From positions 4,704,001-4,768,000 of the forward strand of contig CM000154.2 of NCBI GenBank assembly GCA_000004695.1: a stretch of 64,000 nt of DNA. Reading direction: 5' to 3'. Every line of letters starts with the position of its first letter. The stretch's first letter is position 1. The notes beneath the pieces were generated by a model that saw nothing but the letters and a program-made list of their open reading frames with translations, ran no database searches and had not been told where the DNA came from. Source of the stretch: Dictyostelium discoideum. Lineage: Eukaryota. The translations under genes were made by a program, and so were the position numbers. Below, piece after piece: positions 4,771-44,000 of this stretch.

Positions 4771-5312
4771 TCCTAACAATTGGTTATAACCAATCGTGTG
4801 TTTTGTAAATAAAATAAAAAATAAAAAAAAATAAAAAATATAAAAAAAATAGTGGATGGTATAAGTTAGAAAATAAATAAAATAAAATAAATAAAAAAAT
4901 AAGACCATTCCCAACAATTATATGTTTTCTATTTTTTTTTTTTTTCAGATTTTTTTTTTTTTTCTTTCTTTTTGTAAAAAAAAAAAAAAAAATTACGGAT
5001 ATGAATTCATTTAAAGAGTACCAATCTTTAATTTAATAAAGAATTGTTGTACAAGAAGTTAGTGTTATTAATAAAAAATTAAAAAATTAAAAATTAAAAT
5101 TTAATTAATTCTTTTTTTTTTTATTTTTTTTTTTTTATTTTTTTTTTTCAGCATGTCAAGATTTATCATTAGGTAATGAAGATGCAAATCAATTATCAGT
5201 TGATTTAAAGAAATTATTTTTATAAGAAAATCATTTATTATGGGTCAATTAGCAGGTATAACCTATTGGTACACTCAAAATGATTTAATTAAAACTTTAG
5301 AAATCTTTTATA

Positions 5313-6715: not shown

Positions 6716-8193
6716 ATGTCAATTGATATAAAATTTACAATTAATGATATTTTATTTAATCAAGAATCATTACAAAAGAAAAATAAATATACATGTCCAA
6801 TTTGTTTTGAATTTATTTATAAAAAACAAATTTATCAATGTAAATCAGGTCATCATGCATGTAAAGAATGTTGGGAGAAATCATTAGAAACAAAAAAAGA
6901 ATGTATGACTTGTAAATCAGTAGTGAATTCATATAATGATTTATCAAGATGTTTGATGGTAGAGCGTGCATTTGATAAAAAAGAATGTTGTTGTATTTAC
7001 TCATTCACCGAACAAATAGTTCAAGGTGGAACAAATTGTTCACCACCAGATGGTGCCTCAGACCAAAATCAAAGAAAATTAATAAAAGATGAAGAAAATG
7101 GTTGTAAAGAAAAAATTGAAGTTGATCAAATTGATTCTCATTTAATCAATTGTCAATATAAATTTGTTACATGTTCATTCAAAGGATGTGAAAAGATTTT
7201 AAGAATGAATTCATTAGAATCTCATCAAAATGAATGTGGTTTCAAATTGGTTATATGTGATTTCTGTAAAAGGGATGATATTAAAAAGAAGGAATTAGAA
7301 ACTCATTATAAGACATGTCCAATGGTTCCAATTGATTGCTCACAAGGTTGTTCAGTGAAAATTGAAAGGAAATCAATTATCGATCATATTGAAAATGATT
7401 GTTGTAATACTCAAATACCATGTAAATATTTTGAACAAGGTTGTAAAGTTGAGATGAAGAGATCAGAATTACAAAATCATTTGGAGAGAGTGAATCATCA
7501 AACTTACATGGGCATTCTAATTGATAAATTAACAAATCAAGTTGGCCACTCAAAGAAAACTCATGATGAACTTTTGAAAAAGATTGAAGATTTGTCATTA
7601 TTAATTATCAAATTCAGTGATGCATGTTTAAAGAAACAAGTTCTTCCAAAGGCTTTGGATATTTGTTCAAATGGGTATAGAAATAAATGGATCATTTCTA
7701 ACTATTCAAGTTTAGCAAAATCAAAATTAAATTGTAAATCATTGTCCTCTCCAATACTGTTAATACTCTCTCACCATTTTCAAGTTTGTGTTTATCCTAA
7801 AGGTGATGAAAATAAAGAATACATTTCATTATATTTAAGAGTTAATAATATTGAAGAACCAAACTCATTAAAAGTAGAATATTCATTTACATTAGTCAAT
7901 GTTTTGGATAAATCAAAATCAATTACAAAAAGAGTAGATAAAATAGGTAATTTATACAAAAATTATTATTATTATTATTATTATTATTATTTTAATTTTT
8001 AATTAATTATTATTATTATTATTATTATTTTTTTATTTTAGTTTTTATAAGTCCAAAAGAATGGGGATGGGGAAAATTCTTATTATCTGATTTAATTAAT
8101 AAAGAGAATGGTTGGTTAAGTAATGATGATAAATTAACAATAGAAATTTATATTAAAATTTTAAATGAAGAATATGAACCATTGGAGTCTTAA
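6716..8193 (+). CDS. TRAF-like protein: N-terminal RING finger, TRAF-type zinc fingers and a C-terminal MATH domain. Two exons (6716..7946 and 8042..8193).
   Basis: [28 protein letters not shown]. Repeated C-x-C..H..C TRAF-zf units ([18 protein letters not shown]). MATH-like tail [34 protein letters not shown] donor at 7947 and AG at 8040-8041 continue the MATH domain (..[47 protein letters not shown]). Confidence 0.8.
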
Positions 8194-8511
8194 ATCTTAA
8201 AAAACTGTAAACCATAAATTGATAAAATCATGTATTTCCCTATTTTTACAACTTAAAAAAAAAATATAAATAAATAAAAAAATCTTTCCAAATTATTTAA
8301 TGTTCAACTAGTTTTCAATTATTTTCTTAATAATCCTTAAACATTTTTTTTTTTTTTTTAATATGAAAAATAAAATATGCAAAAAAAAAAAATAAATAAA
8401 AAATATCCCGCCAATATTTTTTTTTTTATTTTATTTTTTTTGTTAAATAAAAAAAAAAAAAAAAAATGGTTATATACAAATTAAACACACCAAATAGAAA
8501 ATGAGGGGTAA

Positions 8512-9902
8512 TAATTTAGATTACAAAAAAGCATATGAAGAACTTTTAGAAAAAGAAAAAGAACATCAAAAAGTTCTTTTAACTTTTAGAAAAACAAAAA
8601 GCATATGAAGAACTTTTAAAAAAAGAACATCAAGAAAAAGAAAAAGCATATGAAGAACTTTTAGATAAAGAAAAAGAACTTCAAGAAAAAGAAAAAGAAA
8701 ATCAAAAAAAAAGAAAAAGAAAGATCCATCAGACATCTTATTGATAATGGCATACCAAAGTGCATTATAACATCAACATCACAATCTTCGTCAAACCATG
8801 ATTCATGTCAATTACAACCTAGCACTTGGGTTGGGATACCAAATTTTGAAGATCTTTTAGAAAAGAATGGTGATAAAGAATCAAGTGTGTTGTCTCTTTA
8901 TAGAAACTCTGATACTTTCACTGCTCGTAATGAATATGAACTATATAATTTTACAAATCCTATTATTAGAGATGCTTTGAAATTATGTGGTCTTGAACAT
9001 GAAATTTCAATTGTTTCTCAAGAAGATATTGTTGGATTACAACCAGATCATTGGTTATTAAAATCAAAAACTAATTATATTGGTTTAATTCAAGTCGAAT
9101 GTAATGAAGATTCATTTCATGAACCAAAGGTCATTGGACAAATGTTTGATTATTTAATGGATCTTTCTTATCGTTTTGGCAAATTACAAGCATTTGGACT
9201 TTTATTAACATACAACAAAGCAATGACTGTATCCACACATGATTCACTAAAATCGGCAGCTGCTAATATTCAAACATCTGCTTTACCTGATCAAATTAGC
9301 AAAACTGTAAAAAATTATTATATGAAATTTATTTAGTCAAGTATTTAGGTGGTGGAGGCGATGGACATTGCTCTTATGCATTAGCAGAAGAGGGTCATAG
9401 TTTGGTTATAAAATCTTTCAATAACACAATTAAAAAAAGAAAAGAGATGAAGAAAGAAGATTATGGCACACCATTTGGGGAATTGAAACTCATAAAAACA
9501 TATGCAGCTAAAGATCATTTGGTAATGCCATTCATAAAACCAATTGGAAATGATGATTATAATAGTACAGATTTTATGGATTTAATATCTACTGCAGCAG
9601 ATACTTTCTCAAGTAAAGGTTATGAACATATGGATTTACACATTAGACATATTTGTAAATACAAAAAAAATGAAAAATGTGAATATATATTTATTGATTT
9701 ATCAAGAGTATCAAAAGTCACAGATAAAGATCAAGCAAAACAAAGAATGATTAATTGTATTTTAAAAGATTTAGAAAAAATCAGATATAATCATAGTTTA
9801 ACCGATAACGAACAACCAAACTCTTCCATTGCCCATGCAAATCTTGAACGATTTTCCAATCCTTTTACCATTCCTTTAACTCCAAATGATAAGTCCAAGT
9901 AA
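8512..9902 (+). pseudogene. Frameshift-disrupted gene with degenerate N-terminal KAYEELLEKEKE coiled-coil repeats, a middle region, and a C-terminal atypical protein-kinase-like domain (Gly-loop YLGGGGDGHCSYALAEEGHSLVIKSF, HMDLHIRHI, IFIDLS). This could instead be an intact gene carrying a sequencing error.
   Basis: Two long open frames (about 8745-9336 and 9294-9902) overlap by 42 nt in different frames. Adding one A to the A6 run at 9309-9314 fuses them into ..DQISKTVKKLLYEIYLVKYLGGGG... The only GT..AG candidate here is 35 nt, too short for an intron. The three KAYEELL repeat units at 8520-8700 are themselves out of frame with one another. Confidence 0.4.
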
Positions 9903-10301
9903 TTTATTTAATAAATAATTAATATAAAATTGTAAATAAACGTTATTAAATTGGGTTATAGCAGTGTTGGTAAATCCAATAATAAACATCAACATTAAAA
10001 AATATCGGTAATGATGATTCATTTATTGGTGCTGCTTTAATTTCATTTAATACTTTAATGAATTTAAATAAATAAAATAATAAAAAGATGGAATATTCCA
10101 ATTTGTGTAAAAAAAAAAGGTGTGTGTTTATTTAAATAAAAACTATTTCAAATAAAATTGATAATATTTTTCTTTAAAGTTTAGAGGATATCAGCTGGAC
10201 TAACTAAATTTTCTTTTTTATCGAAATACTATTATTTTTTTAAAAAGTATATAATAAAATATATTAATTTTAGTATTTTTATTTTTTATTTATTTATTTA
10301 T

Positions 10302-11143
10302 TTATTTATTAAATAATAATACACTTACTTTTGAATCATCATTATCCCAATAAATTACAAGAGTTTTACCATCTAATTTTGATTGGATATCTTTGTAAAT
10401 TCTAATTTCATCAACAGTTGAATATACTCCAAGAGCACCTAATTATTATTATTATTATTGTTGTTGTTGGTGTTTACATTAAATTATTAGTTTTATTTGA
10501 AAAAATTAAAAATTAAAAATTAAAAAATTAAAATTTTACCTGGTTTCATTAAATTAAGTGAAATATATTCAACATCTTTTGGGAAATCAATTCTGGTTGA
10601 ATCATATTTTAAATGCATATTTTTTTTACATGGTTTACCAGTACTATCACCAGCTTTGATTTCTTTGTAATCACTGCTTTTTGGGTCCAAGTAAATTCTA
10701 ACTGCTTTATTCCATCCAGTCTTTTCGTTAACAAGGATTCTATTATTATTATAATTTTAATAATATAAAAAAAAAAAAAAAAAAAAAAATGAAATAATTA
10801 ATTAAATATTATAAACAAAAACATTTTTAATTATTGTGGGTTTTTTTTTTATTTTTTATTATAATATCTTACAATCTAAAACCACCCTTTGGTCTTTTAT
10901 CATTGAATCTTAAATATTTAACTTCTAATTTATCGGCCTCTATAATGGGTAAAAATAAATAAATAAATAAATAAATAAGTTTTAAAATAAAAATAAAAAT
11001 AATATTATAAAAAAGAGAGAAATACCTTTGTCTGGTAAAAAACCTTTGATTTTATCAATAGCTGTTGAACCAATTGCAACAATACCACCAACAGCACCAA
11101 TTGCAGCTGCGACAGTTGTTAAAGTTAATGTAATGACTACCAT
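10302..11143 (-). CDS. Small N-terminally anchored or secreted protein, copy 1 of a tandem pair. Four exons (11143..11026, 10939..10873, 10739..10540, 10438..10302).
   Basis: Exon 1 codes MVVITLTLTTVAAAIGAVGGIVAIGSTAIDKIKGFLPDK (hydrophobic anchor). Donors GTATTT, GTAAGA and GTAAAA and AG acceptors give a phase-consistent product ..EADKLEVKYLRFNDKRPKGGFRL LILVNEKTGWNKAVRIYLDPKSSDYKEIKAGDSTGKPCKKNMHLKYDSTRIDFPKDVEYISLNLMKPG ALGVYSTVDEIRIYKDIQSKLDGKTLVIYWDNDDSKVSVLLFNK*. Confidence 0.6.
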
Positions 11144-29889: not shown

Positions 29890-30178
29890 TTAACAAAATC
29901 TACGACGACAACCAATATCGATGTCAAGGTTTATGATATTGGTGTTTGAACCACCACAACCACCAATACCACCCCATCCACTTGAACCACCCATCCACCC
30001 TAAACCACCACCACAACCGCCATGAAAGCATGAAATTGAATTATTAGCAAATTCATTAAAAATTAGAGGCACCAATTGAACTTTCCATTGAACCAGTTGA
30101 ATTTGAAATTGATGAAATTGGTTTTGTTATATAATATATTATTGAAAAAAAAAAAAAAAAAAGAAATATTTACTAAAA
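29890..30178 (-). pseudogene. Degenerate member of the HssA/B-like small Gly/Cys-rich protein family. It has lost the exon-2 acceptor and carries a frameshifting 5-nt deletion.
   Basis: It retains the family leader ATGGAAATTTTTA+gtaaat and the C-terminal [24 protein letters not shown]. The acceptor position has AC instead of [20 protein letters not shown] is then followed by a frame shift relative to the paralogues. Confidence 0.5.
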
Positions 30179-31254: not shown

Positions 31255-31562
31255 TTAACAACATCTACGATGACGACGACGACCAATATCAATGTCAAGG
31301 TTAATAATATTAACATTTGAACCACCACAACCACCACAACCACCCCATCTTCCCAAATCATTATCAAAACATGCTGTTGAATTATCATTGAAAACTGATC
31401 CAGTATAATTAAGGGTGGCGATTGAACTTGATGTTGATCTTGTTGGATTTGAAATTGATGAAATTGAATCTAAATAATTAATTATTTTAAAAATGTTAAT
31501 ATTTTCTAAAGTATTTACTTGATTCATTCAAGGGAAAAAAAAAATTTACTAAAAATTGTCAT
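31255..31562 (-). CDS. HssA/B-like small protein. Two exons (13-nt exon 31562..31550 and 31469..31255).
   Basis: [75 protein letters not shown]. Leader ATGACAATTTTTA+gtaaat, acceptor ttatttAG. Confidence 0.6.
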
Positions 31563-31920: not shown

Positions 31921-32178
31921 TGACTAACTATAATTTACCATACCCTATTTTATAAAATGTCAGAATCAATTTCATCAATTTCAAATTCAACTGGTTCAAT
32001 GGGAAGTTCAATTGGTACATCTAATATTGTTGAATTAACTGGTAACAATAATTCAATTTCATGTTTTGATGGTGGCTATGGTGGTTTTAATGGATTAAGT
32101 GGTTGTGGTGGTTCAAACGCAAATATCATCAATATTGATATCGATATTGGCCGTCGTCGTCGTCATAGATGTTGTTAA
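31853..32178 (+). CDS. HssA/B-like small protein. Either two exons (13-nt exon 31853..31865 and 31964..32178) or an unspliced start at 31957.
   Basis: [75 protein letters not shown]. This copy also has an in-frame ATG at 31957 (MSESISS..), so both models are open. Confidence 0.65.
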
Positions 32179-39090: not shown

Positions 39091-39720
39091 AAATATATAG
39101 CATGCTTATCATTGTTAGTTGGATTATCATTTTTATTTATAGTTTTAAGAATTTATTTTAAATTTACATCAATTGATAAAGATGTTTGTAGGAATCAAAT
39201 TAATCAAGTTAGAAAGATTTGTTTTTTAACAGTTGGAATATCATGTTGTTTTATAGTTAGATCAATAATTTTCTTTTATAATCCAATAACTCATGAATAT
39301 ATGAACTATGAAGTTTTTATTACATTTGGTTACTTTTTACCAGACATAATTCCAATCATTTTAAATTATATAATCATTTATAATAATATGAAAACTGAAC
39401 AAGAGGATAGTTCATTCATTAATATGTTATATGAAAATGAAATTGAAGATGATGAAACTAATGAAGGTATAATTAAAAATAATAATAATAATAATAGTAA
39501 TTATGTGAATAGTGTTCATGGTAATGATGATTTATTAACGAGTTATTCTAGTACGATTTCAAATACTACAAATACTGTTGTTGGATATTATAATTCTACA
39601 ACTCATACATTTGGTGGTGATGGTGCTATATTATCAACTTCAACTTCAATACTTCAACAACCTCAACAACAGCAACAACAAAGAAATCAACCAGACGAAG
39701 CATCATATTTATTAAAATAA
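38302..39720 (+). CDS. Multi-pass (about 7 TM) membrane protein, possibly THH1/TOM1/TOM3 (DUF1084)-like. Three exons (38302..38514, 38654..38990, 39101..39720).
   Basis: Several hydrophobic helices (IFIGISIISLVIYAVLSSICIYSFF; MSALLVVFFFWW; YFILFNIMIYIIQYLLILFFY; LVGLSFLFIVLRIYF; CFLTVGISCCFIVRSIIFFY; FITFGYFLPDIIPIILNYIIIY). Donors GTAAAA and GTAAGT and AG acceptors keep phase. The family assignment is tentative. Confidence 0.65.
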
Positions 39721-40296
39721 TAAATAATTTTTTAATATTAAAAAAAGAGAAAAAAAAAAAAAAAAGTAATAATTATTTTTATAAAAATATATTTTTTATT
39801 TATCAATTTCTTAAAGAGTTTAAAACCTGATTTCTATGGCAGTAGTGAACTAGTTTGTAAAAATTTTGATATTTTTTGTGTCTTTTATGGTGAGTTGAAT
39901 ACGCACTGGATAAGGTTTCTCTAAATAAAAGTTTGGAACTTTATGTTGAATGCAAATACTAGGATAGTTTTAAAAGTATTTGCTTTTTTATATAAAACAT
40001 ATGGTTGGGAAGTAGCAGATGTTTACCATTCTCACCAATTACAGAGGTTGTAGTAATTGGAATGGCATTATCCAATGAATTTGGTGGATGTGGTGTTTGA
40101 GTCTCCATTGTGATAAAAGTTTTTTTGTTTATTATTTTTTTTTTTTATATCAAGAAAAAGGTTTGCAAAGGTGCATCCATTTCACCATTACCAATTCAAG
40201 TAACACCAAGTATTAATCCTTTTGAATTGATAATGGTAATCTCATTGATTGTGAACTGGTTGGCGATGGTGGTGGCGATTTACTACTATACATTCG

Positions 40297-40394
40297 TTTC
40301 AACCACCACCGATGTTGAGGAGAATGATCGTTAAAGAGTTATCAAATTTAATAAAGAGAATTTATTATCATCACATCATCGGTGGTGGTTGAAA
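40297..40394. repeat. Perfect 18-bp inverted repeat (tttcaaccaccaccgatg at 40297-40314 and catcggtggtggttgaaa at 40377-40394) separated by a 62-nt loop
   Basis: Exact reverse-complement arms. Arm 1 lies at the 3' end of ORF 40110..40334. Arm 2 abuts the ATG of a downstream short ORF (40394..40516). Confidence 0.6.
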
Positions 40395-41026
40395 TGAATT
40401 CAGAGTTGAAATCATATAAAGAGGGGTACCATTGTAAAGATATTACTATGGTATTTGAAATTCATGAAGCCGCTGGTTTAATAGGAAAAGAATTTTGTTT
40501 GACTGGCTGGACTTGAAAATATGAAATAAAAATGCTAAAAATGTATCATTGGAAAGAGATATTAAAAATGTATTTGAAATTCATGAAAGCGCTGGTATGA
40601 TTGGTAAAGAATGTTGTTCCACTTGCAACAATGAACCAGAGTACCAGCAAACACATCGGCATTGATTGATATCATAGAGTTAATTAAAAAAAACTATAAA
40701 ATAAAATTTTAAAAGTAATCCAAAATAATTATAATGATATTTAAAAAAAAAAAAAAAATAGATAATGTATCTACTACTAAAAAATTTATCCATACTTTTT
40801 TCTTCTTTATCTATTATCTACTCTTTTTTAAAATCATTTGGAAATCTAAAGATTTAAACTGATTTCTTCTATTTTTTCAAATTTTTAATATTGATGTTGA
40901 TAAGAATAAAATAAAAAAGTGAAGTTACAATTTTAGAAAGAAAAAAAAAAAAGAAAATAATTTTTAATATTAATTCTTTTTTAATTTTTTTTCTATTTTT
41001 TATTATTATTATTATTATTTTAAATT

Positions 41027-44000
41027 TTATTCATCAGAACTATCATCATCATCATCATTTTCGTCATCAAATTCTTCTTGGATTGTTGCTTTATTATTAT
41101 TTTTATTATTATTATTATTATTATTATTTTGTAATTGCGGACGACCAGATCTTTTTTCCATAGTTTTTTTAAGTATTTCATTCCATTGTTTTTGAGACAT
41201 AAACCAAGGACCTGTGAAAACACAAAGAACGGTTGTTTCAGGTGAATAATGTAGATTATGAAGTAATTTTGGAGTGATTAAAAAGTATTGAGGAGAACCT
41301 TCACTACTAACGGATTTAACGATTTGTTCGAAAATCATTCTTTCATTCTTTGGATCCATACCTTGATTGATTTCATCTACCACTCTAAAAGGACAAGTTG
41401 TTAAATCCTGTAGAGAGATTAGATACAACATGGTACTAACTGATCTTTCACCACCAGATTGTAATTGAGCATTCAAAGTTTTCAAAGAATCTTCATTACG
41501 GAATTTAACACGAATATCCACAAAATATTTTGAATAATCATCGGGATGTTGTTCATCGAAACCTAGATGAACTTCACCCAAACAATTGATCGCCTTGAAA
41601 TATTGTGAGAAACTTGTATTGACTTGAGAGATAAACTCTTTTACAGGTACCAACCAATCCTCTCTTAATCTGCCCATTCGTTTATCGTTATCTTGTAACT
41701 CTCTTTGACGAAAGGATATTCTGTCCTCAATCACTTGAATTTCTCTCTTTCTCCCTTCATATTCTTCCAAAACTTTTGGATTATTTGAAATGATGAAATT
41801 TGCTTTAGTTTCAGTGGCTGAGATTTCTCTATCGATCTCCTCGAGAGAATGGAAACTGATTGATTTAAACTCCTCTTGAACCTCGAGTGTTAAAGGGCCA
41901 ACGATTTTCTCTGCTTCGCTTTTCAATCTTTTAGCCTCTTTAACACAGTCATCGAAATATTTGACCAATTCCGCTAGTCTCGTTTTATCAGCTTCAAGCT
42001 TTGCACTCTCACGTGCCAAGCTGTCCTCCTCAGAACGTAATTTAGCTTCGAGTCTACTGAGGGTGATTAAAGTATGATCACGGGAACCCATATGTTTGAA
42101 ATAATCTCTTAATTTATCAGTGATCTCTGATAGAGTATCAGCTCTCTTTGCATAGACCTCCCTTAGTTTTTGCCTGATTTTCTTTTCTTCCTCTTCAATG
42201 TTCTCCTCGGTATTTAATTCCTCTAATTTTCTAGCTAAAAATTGAATTCTACTATAACATTTACGACGATCATCAATGGTTGCATTACATTTATTCCTCT
42301 CCTCTGTGATGTTACGTTGAGTTGCAGTGATTTGATTTTGTTTTTGTCTAATTTCCTCAGCTGATAGCCTCTCTTGATCAAGACGTACCTTTGCTTGTCG
42401 AAATTTCTCTTGAAGTTCATCTTTCTTACCAGTGTTTATACCAGACAACCATTTTGCAACCTTGAAATTGGATACACGTGTGGTTGGTTTTCTATCACCA
42501 TATCTTGAATAAGTGGTATAGTAGGAACCATTTGGAGTGAAGAAAGAATTGATATGTTTGGTAATAGTATCTTCATTATTCAATGCACGTCTATCGAATA
42601 CAATACTCTTGAAAATTGGAATACTATCCATGATTGCATTTTTTACAACTTGATCAGCTTCAAATGTTTCATCTAAATAATGCGTGGCACCAATGGATCT
42701 GAAATCTTCAATATTATTAACACGCTCCATTTTGAAGCCTCCCCTACTGACCAAAGTGTTTACTCTTAACTTTTTACCATTATCAATGATATTGCTGTGA
42801 AAAGTTTCACGATCCTCCATAGATTGGAAAACAAATGTCATCATTAGATTAAAACTTAATGTCATCTCTAAGAATGCGGCATGTTCAGGATTCTGTACAT
42901 TAATCTCCATACAAATCGGACCAAACACTTTCTGTTTGAATAGATTTTGATTTTGTCTTAACCATTCGTATGCTGAATAAACGTCTCTTTGATCATTACG
43001 TAGGAATTCTAACTTTTGAGCTTGAATATTGTTTAATTGTGACATCTCCCTTTGAATTGAGGTACACTCTTGATTGATCATATTGAACTGTCTATTCTTT
43101 GCCTCCTTTTCAATCTCCAATTCACCCAATTGTTGATTACAATCTTTCAATTCCCTATTCAACTTTTCCACATTTCTCTTGGTATCTTCATCATTTGGTA
43201 ATCTTTGCATCTTTGTAGTCTCATCTTGAATATCTTTGGTCACTCTTGCAATTTGAACTTTTCTCTCTTTATCACGTTGTTGTATTCCATCTATTTCCGC
43301 TAAAAAATTCTCAACTACAATTACCAACTTACCATCTGTTAATGATAATCTTGATACTTCACTTTCAGTTTGTTGTACTTTTGTTGAATTATCATGAACT
43401 TCTTTTCTACTTTTTTCAATTGATTTAGTTTGTTCACTTTTTTTTTTCACAATAAATAATAAATAATAAATTAATAATAAAAATAATTAAAAATAATTAA
43501 AAAAAATAAAAAATAATTTTAAAAAAAAAACATACCTAATAATTGATTTAAAAGGTTTTAATTGTGATTCACCATGTTGAACAGTTTTTTCTGCTAGTTC
43601 TTTATCATCTCTTGCTTTTATGAATGCAACCCTTGCATTTTCAAAGATTGCCCATGTTCTTTTTCTTTTTAATTTGTCAACAAATTCTAATAACTTTTGT
43701 CTTTCTCTAAATTTATCTACATCTTTTTCTAATGATTGATTCTTTTTAACCAAATCATCTAAATTCTTTTTTAATTCTTCAAATGTCTATTTTTTTAATA
43801 ATAAAATATAAAATATATTAGTATAGAGAGTGGTGGGTGGGTGGGTGTGTGTGTGTATATAAAATTCATACAGTTGATTCTTTTTGATGATTTGATTGTA
43901 ATCTAATTAATTCTTGATGATTTTCATACATATTATTAATATTGATTGCTTTTTCAGTTTCAATTAATAATTCAGTTGGTGACATTGAAGCGAAACTAAC

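Follow-up and report, generated by a model that had tools for sequence, protein, structure and literature searches.

The GC-rich island described here, which lies within a 64,000-nt stretch of the Dictyostelium discoideum genome (hereafter the window), is probably a non-functional relic, i.e. a truncated, internally deleted and rearranged copy of the middle portion of a class II histone deacetylase (HDAC) gene of the dictyostelid hdaC/hdaD type. A preliminary description of the island had listed a minus-strand open reading frame (ORF), a plus-strand ORF starting close to it on the other strand, a perfect inverted repeat and two tandem copies of a peptide-coding unit. These four features are best read as mutational scars.

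Homology to class II histone deacetylases

The island belongs to chromosome 5 of D. discoideum AX4, where smc5 and the upstream gene, which is DDB_G0290915 (100% identity), converge on it with their 3' ends. In agreement with the preliminary description, the island is GC-rich (0.30-0.35 across 39900-40700 vs. 0.15-0.22 in the flanks, and equal to the smc5 exons) and has no long ORF. Blastn located the island in four genomes at orthologous positions, namely those of AX4, of two other D. discoideum (L005 and L006) and of D. cf. discoideum (L004), the last of which served as outgroup. Its parts, in coordinates of the window, are as follows.

39834..39983, minus strand: distal pseudogene piece, with the linker end and the first residues of the HDAC catalytic domain
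39984..40107, minus strand: GC-rich stretch with a 49-codon 'METQ...' ORF (40108..39959); no significant HDAC match
40118..40697, plus strand: segment whose orientation in AX4 is opposite to that in L005, L006 and L004 (blastn)
40120..40146, plus strand: T-run just inside the left boundary of the inverted segment, with which it moves
40150..40291, plus strand: putative proximal pseudogene part, comprising most of a 74-codon GTG ORF (weak tblastn match)
40280..40411, plus strand: hairpin (self-complementarity, folding, tblastn)
40426..40507, plus strand: tandem unit 1, ..(K)DITMVFEIHEAAGLIGKEFCLTG.. (direct repeat, self-blastn, tblastn)
40525..40632, plus strand: tandem unit 2, NVSLERDIKNVFEIHESAGMIGKECCSTCNN (tblastn, profile search)

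A profile of the repeated unit was compared with 1.84 billion proteins, and matched dictyostelid class II HDACs of the hdaC/hdaD type. At E < 1e-4, the matches over a single stretch were exclusively dictyostelid: P0122 (E = 1.1e-5), P0123 from D. cf. discoideum (E = 1.3e-5) and P0124, a histone deacetylase domain protein of Polysphondylium violaceum (E = 4.9e-5). The Pfam domain Hist_deacetyl was found in P0122 and P0124 (E = 1e-72 to 1e-73), and begins at residue 919 of P0124. Three further proteins from the profile search (P0121, P0125 and P0126) are unrelated repeat proteins, with Calx-beta-like and leucine-rich repeats by eye; they were set aside because their scores stemmed from many weak stretches or from a short low-complexity match. 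Within the hdaC/hdaD type, hdaD (DDB_G0279267) is an H3K27 deacetylase required for timely multicellular development (PMC8094536).

By tblastn, three or four island pieces matched within HDAC residues ~650-930: the loop of the hairpin together with the 3' arm, each of the two tandem units, and the beginning of the catalytic domain. The matched residues of P0124 are colinear (650-665, 662-719, 687-722 and 906-930). Unit 2 is the best-preserved match (P0124 687-722 and P0122 786-820; 64-66% identity), with E values of 3e-8 to 7e-8 over the whole window. Unit 1 is homologous to ..ERAI(S/T)MVFE(N/H)HETAGQIGKECCST.. of the HDACs (E = 2e-5 to P0122). In the hairpin, the loop and the 3' arm are HDAC-derived: RMIVKELSNLIKR resembles (W)RMVEDLASLIKR and SSVVVEMN resembles SSQSIIEM, with P0124 650-665 matching the loop of L005 and L006 (E = 4e-7) and P0124 662-719 matching 40367-40504. 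The distal piece, YPSICIQHKVPNFYLEKPYPVRI, aligns with YHKICMQHNVPNFHLEKPDRIKV of P0124 (906-930); it maps from 39966 to 39886/39898, with an E value of 4e-4 for the whole window and of 1e-6 in a restricted search. A frameshifted FKTILVF lies directly upstream of this match, and the pseudogene copy is truncated after it, ~10 residues into the catalytic domain. This piece is kept in D. cf. discoideum, but deleted from L005 and L006. A point against this origin is that the parent gene is named solely via orthologues in other dictyostelids, and that the identity of the best piece to these extends over 35 aa.

The stretches 40150-40290 and 39984-40107, about 330 bp in all, showed no significant HDAC match, which counts against the interpretation as a relic. 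We tentatively relate the segment 40150..40291 to HDAC residues of about 600-640 (INPFELIMVISLIVNW vs. INTFVDVIGRIKTIRW), by a match that is weak (E = 11) but colinear. In this segment, ~40 nt are absent from L005 and L006, 35 nt more from L006, and 9-nt and 1-nt indels also occur. The segment 39984..40107, which has an identity of 87-88% in L005 and L006 and is deleted in L004, may be a diverged remnant of the coiled-coil linker of the HDAC.

Pfam detected no significant domain in the island ORFs, a tRNA search of the island found none, and Rfam at E <= 1 returned only generic miRNA-hairpin models for the island, far under their gathering scores. Exact-protein look-ups with three large ORFs of the window found nothing on record, probably because of introns. 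A word-indexed protein search with the concatenated island ORFs gave no match; a 398-aa piece of P0124 was equally blank, so this result is not evidence of absence. We also considered an origin from the gene of 820/878 aa that D. citrinum and D. dimigraforme carry at the corresponding position. It was rejected, with a blank tblastn result and a best Smith-Waterman score of 48, which falls within the range obtained by shuffling (36-61).

Inversion, broken frames and substitution rate

The segment 40118-40697 of AX4 aligns to the minus strand of L005 (833..277; blastn, 84.5% over 601 nt, E = 0). Blastn showed that this 580-bp segment is likewise reversed relative to L006 and L004, while the flanks are colinear. 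Its ends carry short inverted A/T repeats (AGTTTTTTT, 40118-40127; AAAAAAAACT, 40685-40695). Two independent arguments indicate that AX4 carries the derived orientation. Firstly, the outgroup L004 has the orientation of L005, and its ~400-nt deletion is a single contiguous event only in that orientation. Secondly, the HDAC pieces are colinear only in the L005-like orientation, and the AX4 inversion splits them over the two strands. As in other small inversions via short inverted repeats, inverted copies of AGTTTTTTT bound the flipped segment, and remain at both junctions whichever its orientation. In contrast to such cases, the repeats are only ~10 bp long and consist purely of A/T; we therefore infer the mechanism, which would be recombination or a replication template switch.

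The head-to-head layout of the two ORFs is best read as the footprint of this inversion in the AX4 lineage, marking its left breakpoint. Both ORFs exist, but differ in part from what had been described. The minus-strand ORF extends over 40108..39959 (49 codons) rather than 40103..39930 (57 codons). The plus-strand ORF does occupy 40110-40334, but it opens with a GTG, hardly a meaningful 'start' in a eukaryote, and its first in-frame ATG occurs only at 40233. Moreover, the distance between the two starts is 1 nt instead of 7 nt. The ATG of the METQ ORF is present in AX4 only (CACAATGGAG vs. AAATTGGAG in L005 and L006), with an 11-nt indel at the junction.

The two tandem copies are real, and encode the peptides that had been reported, with unit 1 stopping at a TGA and unit 2 at ..CCSTCNNEPEYQQTHRH*. 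Their period is 119 nt, however, and not ~121 nt, and the repeated core spans 70-84 nt rather than ~100 nt. The core has an identity of 79-80%, and self-blastn pairs 40426-40507 with 40543-40626; the repeat was not among the output of Tandem Repeats Finder.

Every frame of the island is broken by 1-nt indels in L005 and L006, and stops lie between all HDAC-derived pieces. Among these indels, one upstream of unit 1 disrupts the MNSELK.. frame in both genomes. Unit 2 has no upstream in-frame ATG, and carries frameshifting indels in L006. A spliced ORF, in which the 74-codon ORF would be joined in frame to unit 1 through a non-canonical GTTAAA donor, was dropped because indels break it in L005 and L006.

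The substitution rate of the island is similar to that of the third codon positions of smc5, both in the comparison of AX4 with L005 (29 of 497 positions, or 5.8%, vs. 6.0% in smc5) and in the comparison of AX4 with L004 (12.8% vs. 11.0%). Given the broken frames, the AX4-only METQ start and this neutral rate, the island is therefore most probably a neutrally decaying pseudogene fragment. It shares several properties with the gene relics known as duplicated-gene pseudogene fragments of eukaryotes: several colinear and significantly similar pieces, a reading frame destroyed by in-frame stops and frameshifts, truncation before all but the first residues of the catalytic domain, a neutral substitution rate and a lineage-specific presence. 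In contrast to these relics, the island is unusually rearranged for its size: within ~860 bp it combines a 580-bp inversion with one tandem and one inverted duplication. Its base composition counts against a relic. Non-coding DNA of Dictyostelium is as a rule far more AT-rich than ~31% GC, yet the island still has ~31% GC although the pseudogene would be older than a species split.

The hairpin and alternative explanations

The 18-bp perfect inverted repeat is located exactly at 40297-40314 and 40377-40394, as had been noted, and an ATG indeed abuts its 3' arm, at 40395. About 0.03 such matches are expected by chance. The preliminary description had proposed a folding check, and as RNA the stem reaches 23 bp, with a folding energy over 151 nt of -49.7 kcal/mol for the plus strand (z = -6.6) and -44.0 kcal/mol for the minus strand (z = -6.7). 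The full arms, 40280-40317 and 40374-40411, are 38 nt long and 82% complementary. The 5' arm appears to be a local inverted duplicate of the 3' arm, and lies where the parent gene has ~7 codons.

The hairpin is kept in the three D. discoideum genomes, with folding energies in sense orientation of -44.2 kcal/mol in AX4, -36.1 kcal/mol in L005 and -35.6 kcal/mol in L006. In D. cf. discoideum most of the 5' arm is deleted and the hairpin is lost (-9.1 kcal/mol). The arms have lost 3 nt in L005 and 1 nt in L006, with a mismatch in L006 as well, and compensatory changes were absent across the compared genomes. Substitutions in the hairpin are fewer than in its surroundings (1 of 105 positions in L005 and 5 of 107 in L006), and the sense orientation is more stable than the antisense orientation in all three D. 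discoideum genomes. Together, these two observations weakly hint at constraint.

Could the pseudogene have been recruited as a recent hairpin-RNA or proto-miRNA locus? A putative transcript beginning beyond the T-run, at ~40147, would then form the stem of 23 bp for dicing by DrnB, and small RNAs from the 5' arm, antisense to HDAC-like coding sequence, could dampen hdaC/hdaD. We consider this improbable. Slightly more doubtful still is the combined scenario in which a pseudogene fragment of an HDAC, a chromatin regulator of development, would have become a newborn hairpin-RNA locus by local inverted duplication, with putative small RNAs antisense to HDAC-like sequence, and in which the laboratory lineage AX4 has this locus in the flipped orientation.

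The miRNAs of D. discoideum are subject to a folding criterion of -0.2 kcal/mol/nt, and their pri-miRNA start sites show a T-rich motif followed by a G (PMC6161686). The criteria of Liao et al. 2018 and of Kozomara & Griffiths-Jones also ask for 10 or more reads per arm with fixed 5' ends, a 2-nt 3' overhang and dependence on DrnB. At -44.2 kcal/mol over 116 nt, the AX4 hairpin is a strong one (-0.38 kcal/mol/nt) that passes this criterion, and the T-run ~150 nt upstream resembles the motif. T-runs are common in Dictyostelium intergenic DNA, so the T-run at 40120..40146 does not discriminate. The only substitution shared in the arms preserves a G-U pair in sense orientation. Furthermore, the origin of one arm as an inverted copy of gene-derived sequence recalls the birth of plant miRNAs, for which inverted duplication of a target-gene fragment is reportedly a classic route (Allen et al. 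2004). The arms are near-perfectly complementary, as in young plant MIRNA genes. Unlike in those genes, the stem measures only 23 bp, and the duplicate would have been taken from a pseudogene rather than directly from a live gene.

Several results argue against a small RNA. The arm sequences are absent from the sequence-searchable miRNA tables of Liao 2018, Edelbroek 2024 and Meier 2016 (PMC6161686, PMC11014262, PMC4894637), and Rosengarten 2017 lists no lncRNA model flanked by DDB_G0290915 and DDB_G0290919 (PMC5295588). The hairpin resembles D. discoideum miRNA loci such as mir-1176 and mir-1177 (Liao et al. 2018, PMC6161686) in its intergenic position, its upstream T-rich stretch and its length of ~110 nt. 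In contrast to these loci, it has a large and poorly paired terminal region of ~56 nt, is not conserved in the sister species, and has a weaker energy per nucleotide than the accepted ddi-miRNAs (-0.43 to -0.70 kcal/mol/nt, in the part of the published data covered here). With, in addition, the deletions in the arms and the lack of compensatory changes, a small-RNA role of the hairpin is unlikely.

The preliminary description had also suggested a decayed mobile element or foldback remnant. Decay was right in spirit, but the probable source is a class II HDAC gene of the host and not a transposon. It had further proposed a search for other loci encoding the repeated peptide, which yielded the dictyostelid HDACs and a second copy of the fragment. 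This second copy, found in D. cf. discoideum at another locus (L007), is unduplicated, contains in-frame stops and has a DNA identity of 74-84% to the island. An element that captured an HDAC fragment and left copies at several loci is very improbable as an explanation. It would fit the position of the L007 copy, at an unrelated locus ~1.4 kb from an LTR-retrotransposon ORF (RVT_1, rve), the start of both copies near one HDAC residue (~717-721 in P0122 numbering) and the inverted repeats inside the island. In contrast, the similarity between the two copies is limited to the HDAC-derived core, with no shared flanks or termini, and the island is orthologously placed in four genomes. Moreover, terminal repeats or LTRs, a target-site duplication and similarity to transposon proteins or their Pfam domains were not found in the island, where the sole 'terminal' inverted repeats are the 10-bp A/T runs, and these bound the inversion instead of the island.

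A small repeated-peptide locus had been the other suggestion. A small-peptide locus for the VFEIHE(A/S)AG(L/M)IGKE peptide(s) or the METQ peptide retains next to no likelihood and is already largely refuted. Although both units of AX4 are open in one frame with similar peptides, and three of the five codon differences between AX4 and L005 within unit 1 are synonymous, descent from an HDAC accounts for the similarity of the peptides, the differences between AX4 and L005 in unit 2 are all non-synonymous, 12 of the 14 nucleotide differences between the units sit in codons with an altered amino acid, both units are wholly absent from L004, and a start or frame is lost in each of L005, L006 and L004, on top of the indels, AX4-only start and neutral rate given above.

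Sequence of events and significance

The relic would span ~residues 600-930 of a 1500-aa HDAC, and end just inside the catalytic domain. The copy may have reached its place between smc5 and DDB_G0290915 before D. discoideum and D. cf. discoideum diverged, and would have decayed neutrally since. The 'repeated peptide' would have arisen when 119 nt, with the segment for ..VPLERAITMVFExHETAGQIGKECCST.., were duplicated in tandem, and the hairpin when the SSVVVEMN-coding stretch underwent a short, local duplication in inverted orientation. The 580 bp probably flipped in the AX4 lineage by recombination or template switching between the ~10-bp A/T inverted repeats, such that the pseudogene was split onto two strands. 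An 11-nt deletion at the left junction would then have created an accidental ATG, and with it two ORFs back-to-back. While the sequence comparisons demonstrate homology, colinear pieces, an inversion, disrupted frames and neutral divergence, the sequence of these steps, the way in which the segment flipped and the lack of a function today are inferred.

The main value of this interpretation lies in clean-up: an odd GC-rich island, whose hairpin is perfect and which encodes a 'repeated peptide', is explained as something ordinary. If the island is such a gene relic, there is no need to chase a new element or peptide family. Three further uses are minor. If small-RNA reads map to the stem, the locus could serve as an inexpensive test of whether miRNAs arise by inverted duplication in Amoebozoa; were the hairpin-RNA scenario true, a proto-miRNA would have been observed at its birth in this group, by the inverted-duplication route described for plants. 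The small inversion tells the AX4 reference apart from related genomes. Finally, within the D. discoideum species complex, copied fragments of a class II HDAC gene occupy at least two loci, and one of these copies is currently annotated as a protein.

Homology of the island to class II histone deacetylases

The GC-rich island (~39830-40700) lies between two convergent 3' ends, because the membrane-protein gene DDB_G0290915 stops at 39720 and smc5, on the minus strand, ends at 41027. The window belongs to chromosome 5 of D. discoideum AX4. DDB_G0290915, identified by its last exon (100% identical), encodes a THH1/TOM1/TOM3-domain protein; its orthologues occur in D. citrinum, D. dimigraforme and D. 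cf. discoideum, as well as in further genomes carrying the D. discoideum label. The reported GC enrichment was borne out, with a GC content of 0.30-0.35 over 39900-40700 versus 0.15-0.22 in both flanks, and equals the level of the smc5 exons. Searches of the island yielded no tRNA, no Pfam domain in its ORFs, and in Rfam only generic miRNA-hairpin matches far under threshold. The concatenated ORFs gave no match in a word-indexed protein search, which was also blank for a 398-aa piece of a member of the searched collection. Having missed a sequence from the very collection searched, the method is not to be trusted where it finds nothing for low-complexity, Dictyostelium-like sequence.

A profile was built from the two tandem units (unit 1, 40426-40507; unit 2, 40525-40632; both plus strand) and searched without a word index against 1.84 billion representative proteins. 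Three of its six matches were dictyostelid, each in a single stretch with E ~1e-5: P0122 (1613 aa), P0124 (1501 aa; a Polysphondylium violaceum histone deacetylase domain protein) and P0123 (148 aa; a D. cf. discoideum hypothetical protein). The other three were rejected as unrelated repeat proteins, which scored by adding up numerous weak stretches or through one short match of low complexity. Pfam Hist_deacetyl was found in P0122 and P0124 (E ~1e-73), beginning at residue 919 in the latter. The island was mapped piece by piece onto the matched proteins by tblastn.

Pieces of the island aligned to P0124 by tblastn
Hairpin loop: P0124 650-665; L005 LIKELSNLIKRNLLSS vs MIEDLSNIIRRNLISS, E 4e-7
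40367-40504 (+): 3' arm and unit 1; P0124 662-719
40525-40632 (+): unit 2; P0124 687-722, 64% identity, E 3e-8
39966-39886 (-): catalytic-domain entry piece; P0124 906-930; island YPSICIQHKVPNFYLEKPYPVRI vs YHKICMQHNVPNFHLEKPDRIKV

The AX4 hairpin loop has RMIVKELSNLIKR and then shifts frame by 1 nt. About 330 bp of the island had no significant HDAC match, and no functional HDAC gene was found within the 64-kb window. The island is most probably nothing unusual: a piece of a class II histone deacetylase gene, much rearranged and in neutral decay, its parent being identified via proteins of other dictyostelids.

The direct repeat described previously is real, with a core of 70-84 nt (79-80% identity) and a spacing of 119 nt in place of the size and period first given. 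This 'tandem peptide unit' would be a 119-nt tandem duplication of a pseudogene segment, the HDAC equivalent of which encodes ..VPLERAI(S/T)MVFE(N/H)HETAGQIGKECCSTRN... The hairpin loop and 3' arm (40374-40411) belong to the pseudogene itself; the 5' arm (40280-40317), within a ~40-nt insertion where the parent has ~7 codons, is best read as a duplicate of the 3' arm in inverse orientation.

The duplication is present in AX4 and in two further genomes labelled D. discoideum (L005 and L006), but not in a second copy of the HDAC fragment in D. cf. discoideum (locus L007, ~5036-5290; JBTAPH010000038.1), in which the unit occurs once and stops interrupt the frame. This copy shares 74-84% DNA identity with the island, and has an LTR-retrotransposon ORF and a pair of actin genes as neighbours. 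It is annotated as P0123 (ACTFIY_009460), a hypothetical protein of 148 aa with a spliced gene model, and is probably a pseudogene mistaken for a gene.

The unit-motif search also brought up three near-identical 18-mers, G(A/G)ATTTGAAATTGATGAA, at 30099-30116 (+), 31445-31462 (+) and, inverted, 31971-31988 (-). A duplicated gene or a recurring coding motif may lie around 30-32 kb.

Inversion and divergence among relatives

The intergenic region was located via DDB_G0290915 orthologues and compared across six genomes, of which L001 did not differ from the window. The space between the DDB_G0290915 orthologue and smc5 is occupied in D. citrinum and D. dimigraforme by an unrelated low-complexity, coiled-coil-rich gene.

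Low-complexity gene (820/878 aa) in the two relatives
L002, D. citrinum, 7481-9943 (-)
L003, D. dimigraforme, 7674-10310 (-)

One part of the D. dimigraforme copy is Cys/His-rich (CFIHPNEDSEFLCFDCEFVPCCAFCISRKGLHHGH). Neither D. discoideum nor D. cf. discoideum has the gene at this position, and nothing in the 64-kb window matches it. A relationship to the island was ruled out, as the two share no similarity. Because an unrelated gene fills the space in these two species, the island is, on present alignments, restricted to the D. discoideum / cf. discoideum clade.

The segment 40118-40697 aligns to the opposite strand of L005, L006 and L004 (D. cf. discoideum), with both flanks colinear (84.5% over 601 nt against L005, E = 0). 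By alignment, it is a 580-bp inversion in AX4 relative to these three. Its junctions fall within inverted copies of AGTTTTTTT (40118-40127, 40685-40695), kept at both ends in either orientation. L004 is oriented like L005, and its ~400-nt deletion, which removes AX4 40406-40697 and 40005-40107, is a single contiguous event only in that orientation; hence the AX4 arrangement reads as the derived one. Independent confirmation comes from the HDAC-matching pieces: only with the segment oriented as in L005 do they follow one another in HDAC order on a single strand.

The head-to-head ORFs would have arisen where the left breakpoint of the inversion lies, with an ATG formed there by chance. Both ORFs exist, but the minus-strand one (40108..39959) has 49 codons, not 57, and the plus-strand one 'starts' with GTG, the gap between the starts being 1 nt. 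In sense-oriented alignments, no island ORF holds up outside AX4. The METQ start codon of the minus-strand ORF occurs in AX4 alone (CAATGG, versus AAATTGG in L005/L006), having been generated there when 11 nt were lost at the left breakpoint. In L005/L006, MNSELK.. is parted from VFEIHE.. by a 1-nt indel; no in-frame ATG precedes unit 2, whose frame is shifted in L006; L004 has neither unit. Between AX4 units 1 and 2, 12 of 14 nucleotide differences lie in amino-acid-changing codons. Substitution-only divergence of the island from AX4 was 5.8% (29/497) in L005 and 12.8% in L004, versus 6.0% and 11.0% at smc5 third codon positions. The island is thus, as far as these alignments tell, without coding constraint and diverging at the smc5 third-position rate. 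From the preliminary description, decay survives, as an HDAC gene fragment by profile and tblastn; a repeated-peptide locus finds no support, its ORFs failing outside AX4.

L005 and L006 differ from AX4 by ~6% at smc5 third codon positions (41027-42226) and by 4% in the DDB_G0290915 protein. These values are large for a single species and suggest cryptic species in the D. discoideum complex. Moreover, the C-terminal poly-Asn (AAT) tract of smc5 (41027-41130) is ~20 codons longer in L005 and ~33 in L006 than in AX4.

A possible small-RNA role of the hairpin

The 18-bp perfect inverted repeat lies exactly where it had been placed (chance expectation ~0.03 matches), and in the proposed RNA folding it lengthens to 23 consecutive pairs. 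Over 151 nt, the plus-strand fold reached -49.7 kcal/mol (z = -6.6) and its minus-strand counterpart -44.0 kcal/mol (z = -6.7). We consider a small-RNA role unlikely. The hairpin energy, -0.38 kcal/mol/nt over 116 nt, satisfies the D. discoideum miRNA criterion (below -0.2; PMC6161686), but is weaker than the values available for accepted ddi-miRNAs (-0.43 to -0.70). The hairpin is kept in L005 and L006 (~-36 kcal/mol), its sense orientation is always the stabler one, and it has fewer substitutions than its surroundings (1/105 in L005, 5/107 in L006); however, its arms carry indels in both, little of it is left in D. cf. discoideum (-9.1 kcal/mol), and no compensatory changes occur among the compared genomes. 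A T-run ~150 nt upstream resembles the one seen at known pri-miRNA start sites, but the developmental lncRNA catalogue has no model neighbouring DDB_G0290915 or smc5 (PMC5295588), and the arms were not found in published D. discoideum miRNA tables searchable by sequence (Liao 2018; Edelbroek 2024; Meier 2016).

The class II HDAC genes of D. discoideum are two, hdaC and hdaD. The latter (DDB_G0279267) is an H3K27 deacetylase needed for timely multicellular development (PMC8094536). As a fragment of such a gene, the island would be one more instance of a well-known kind of object.
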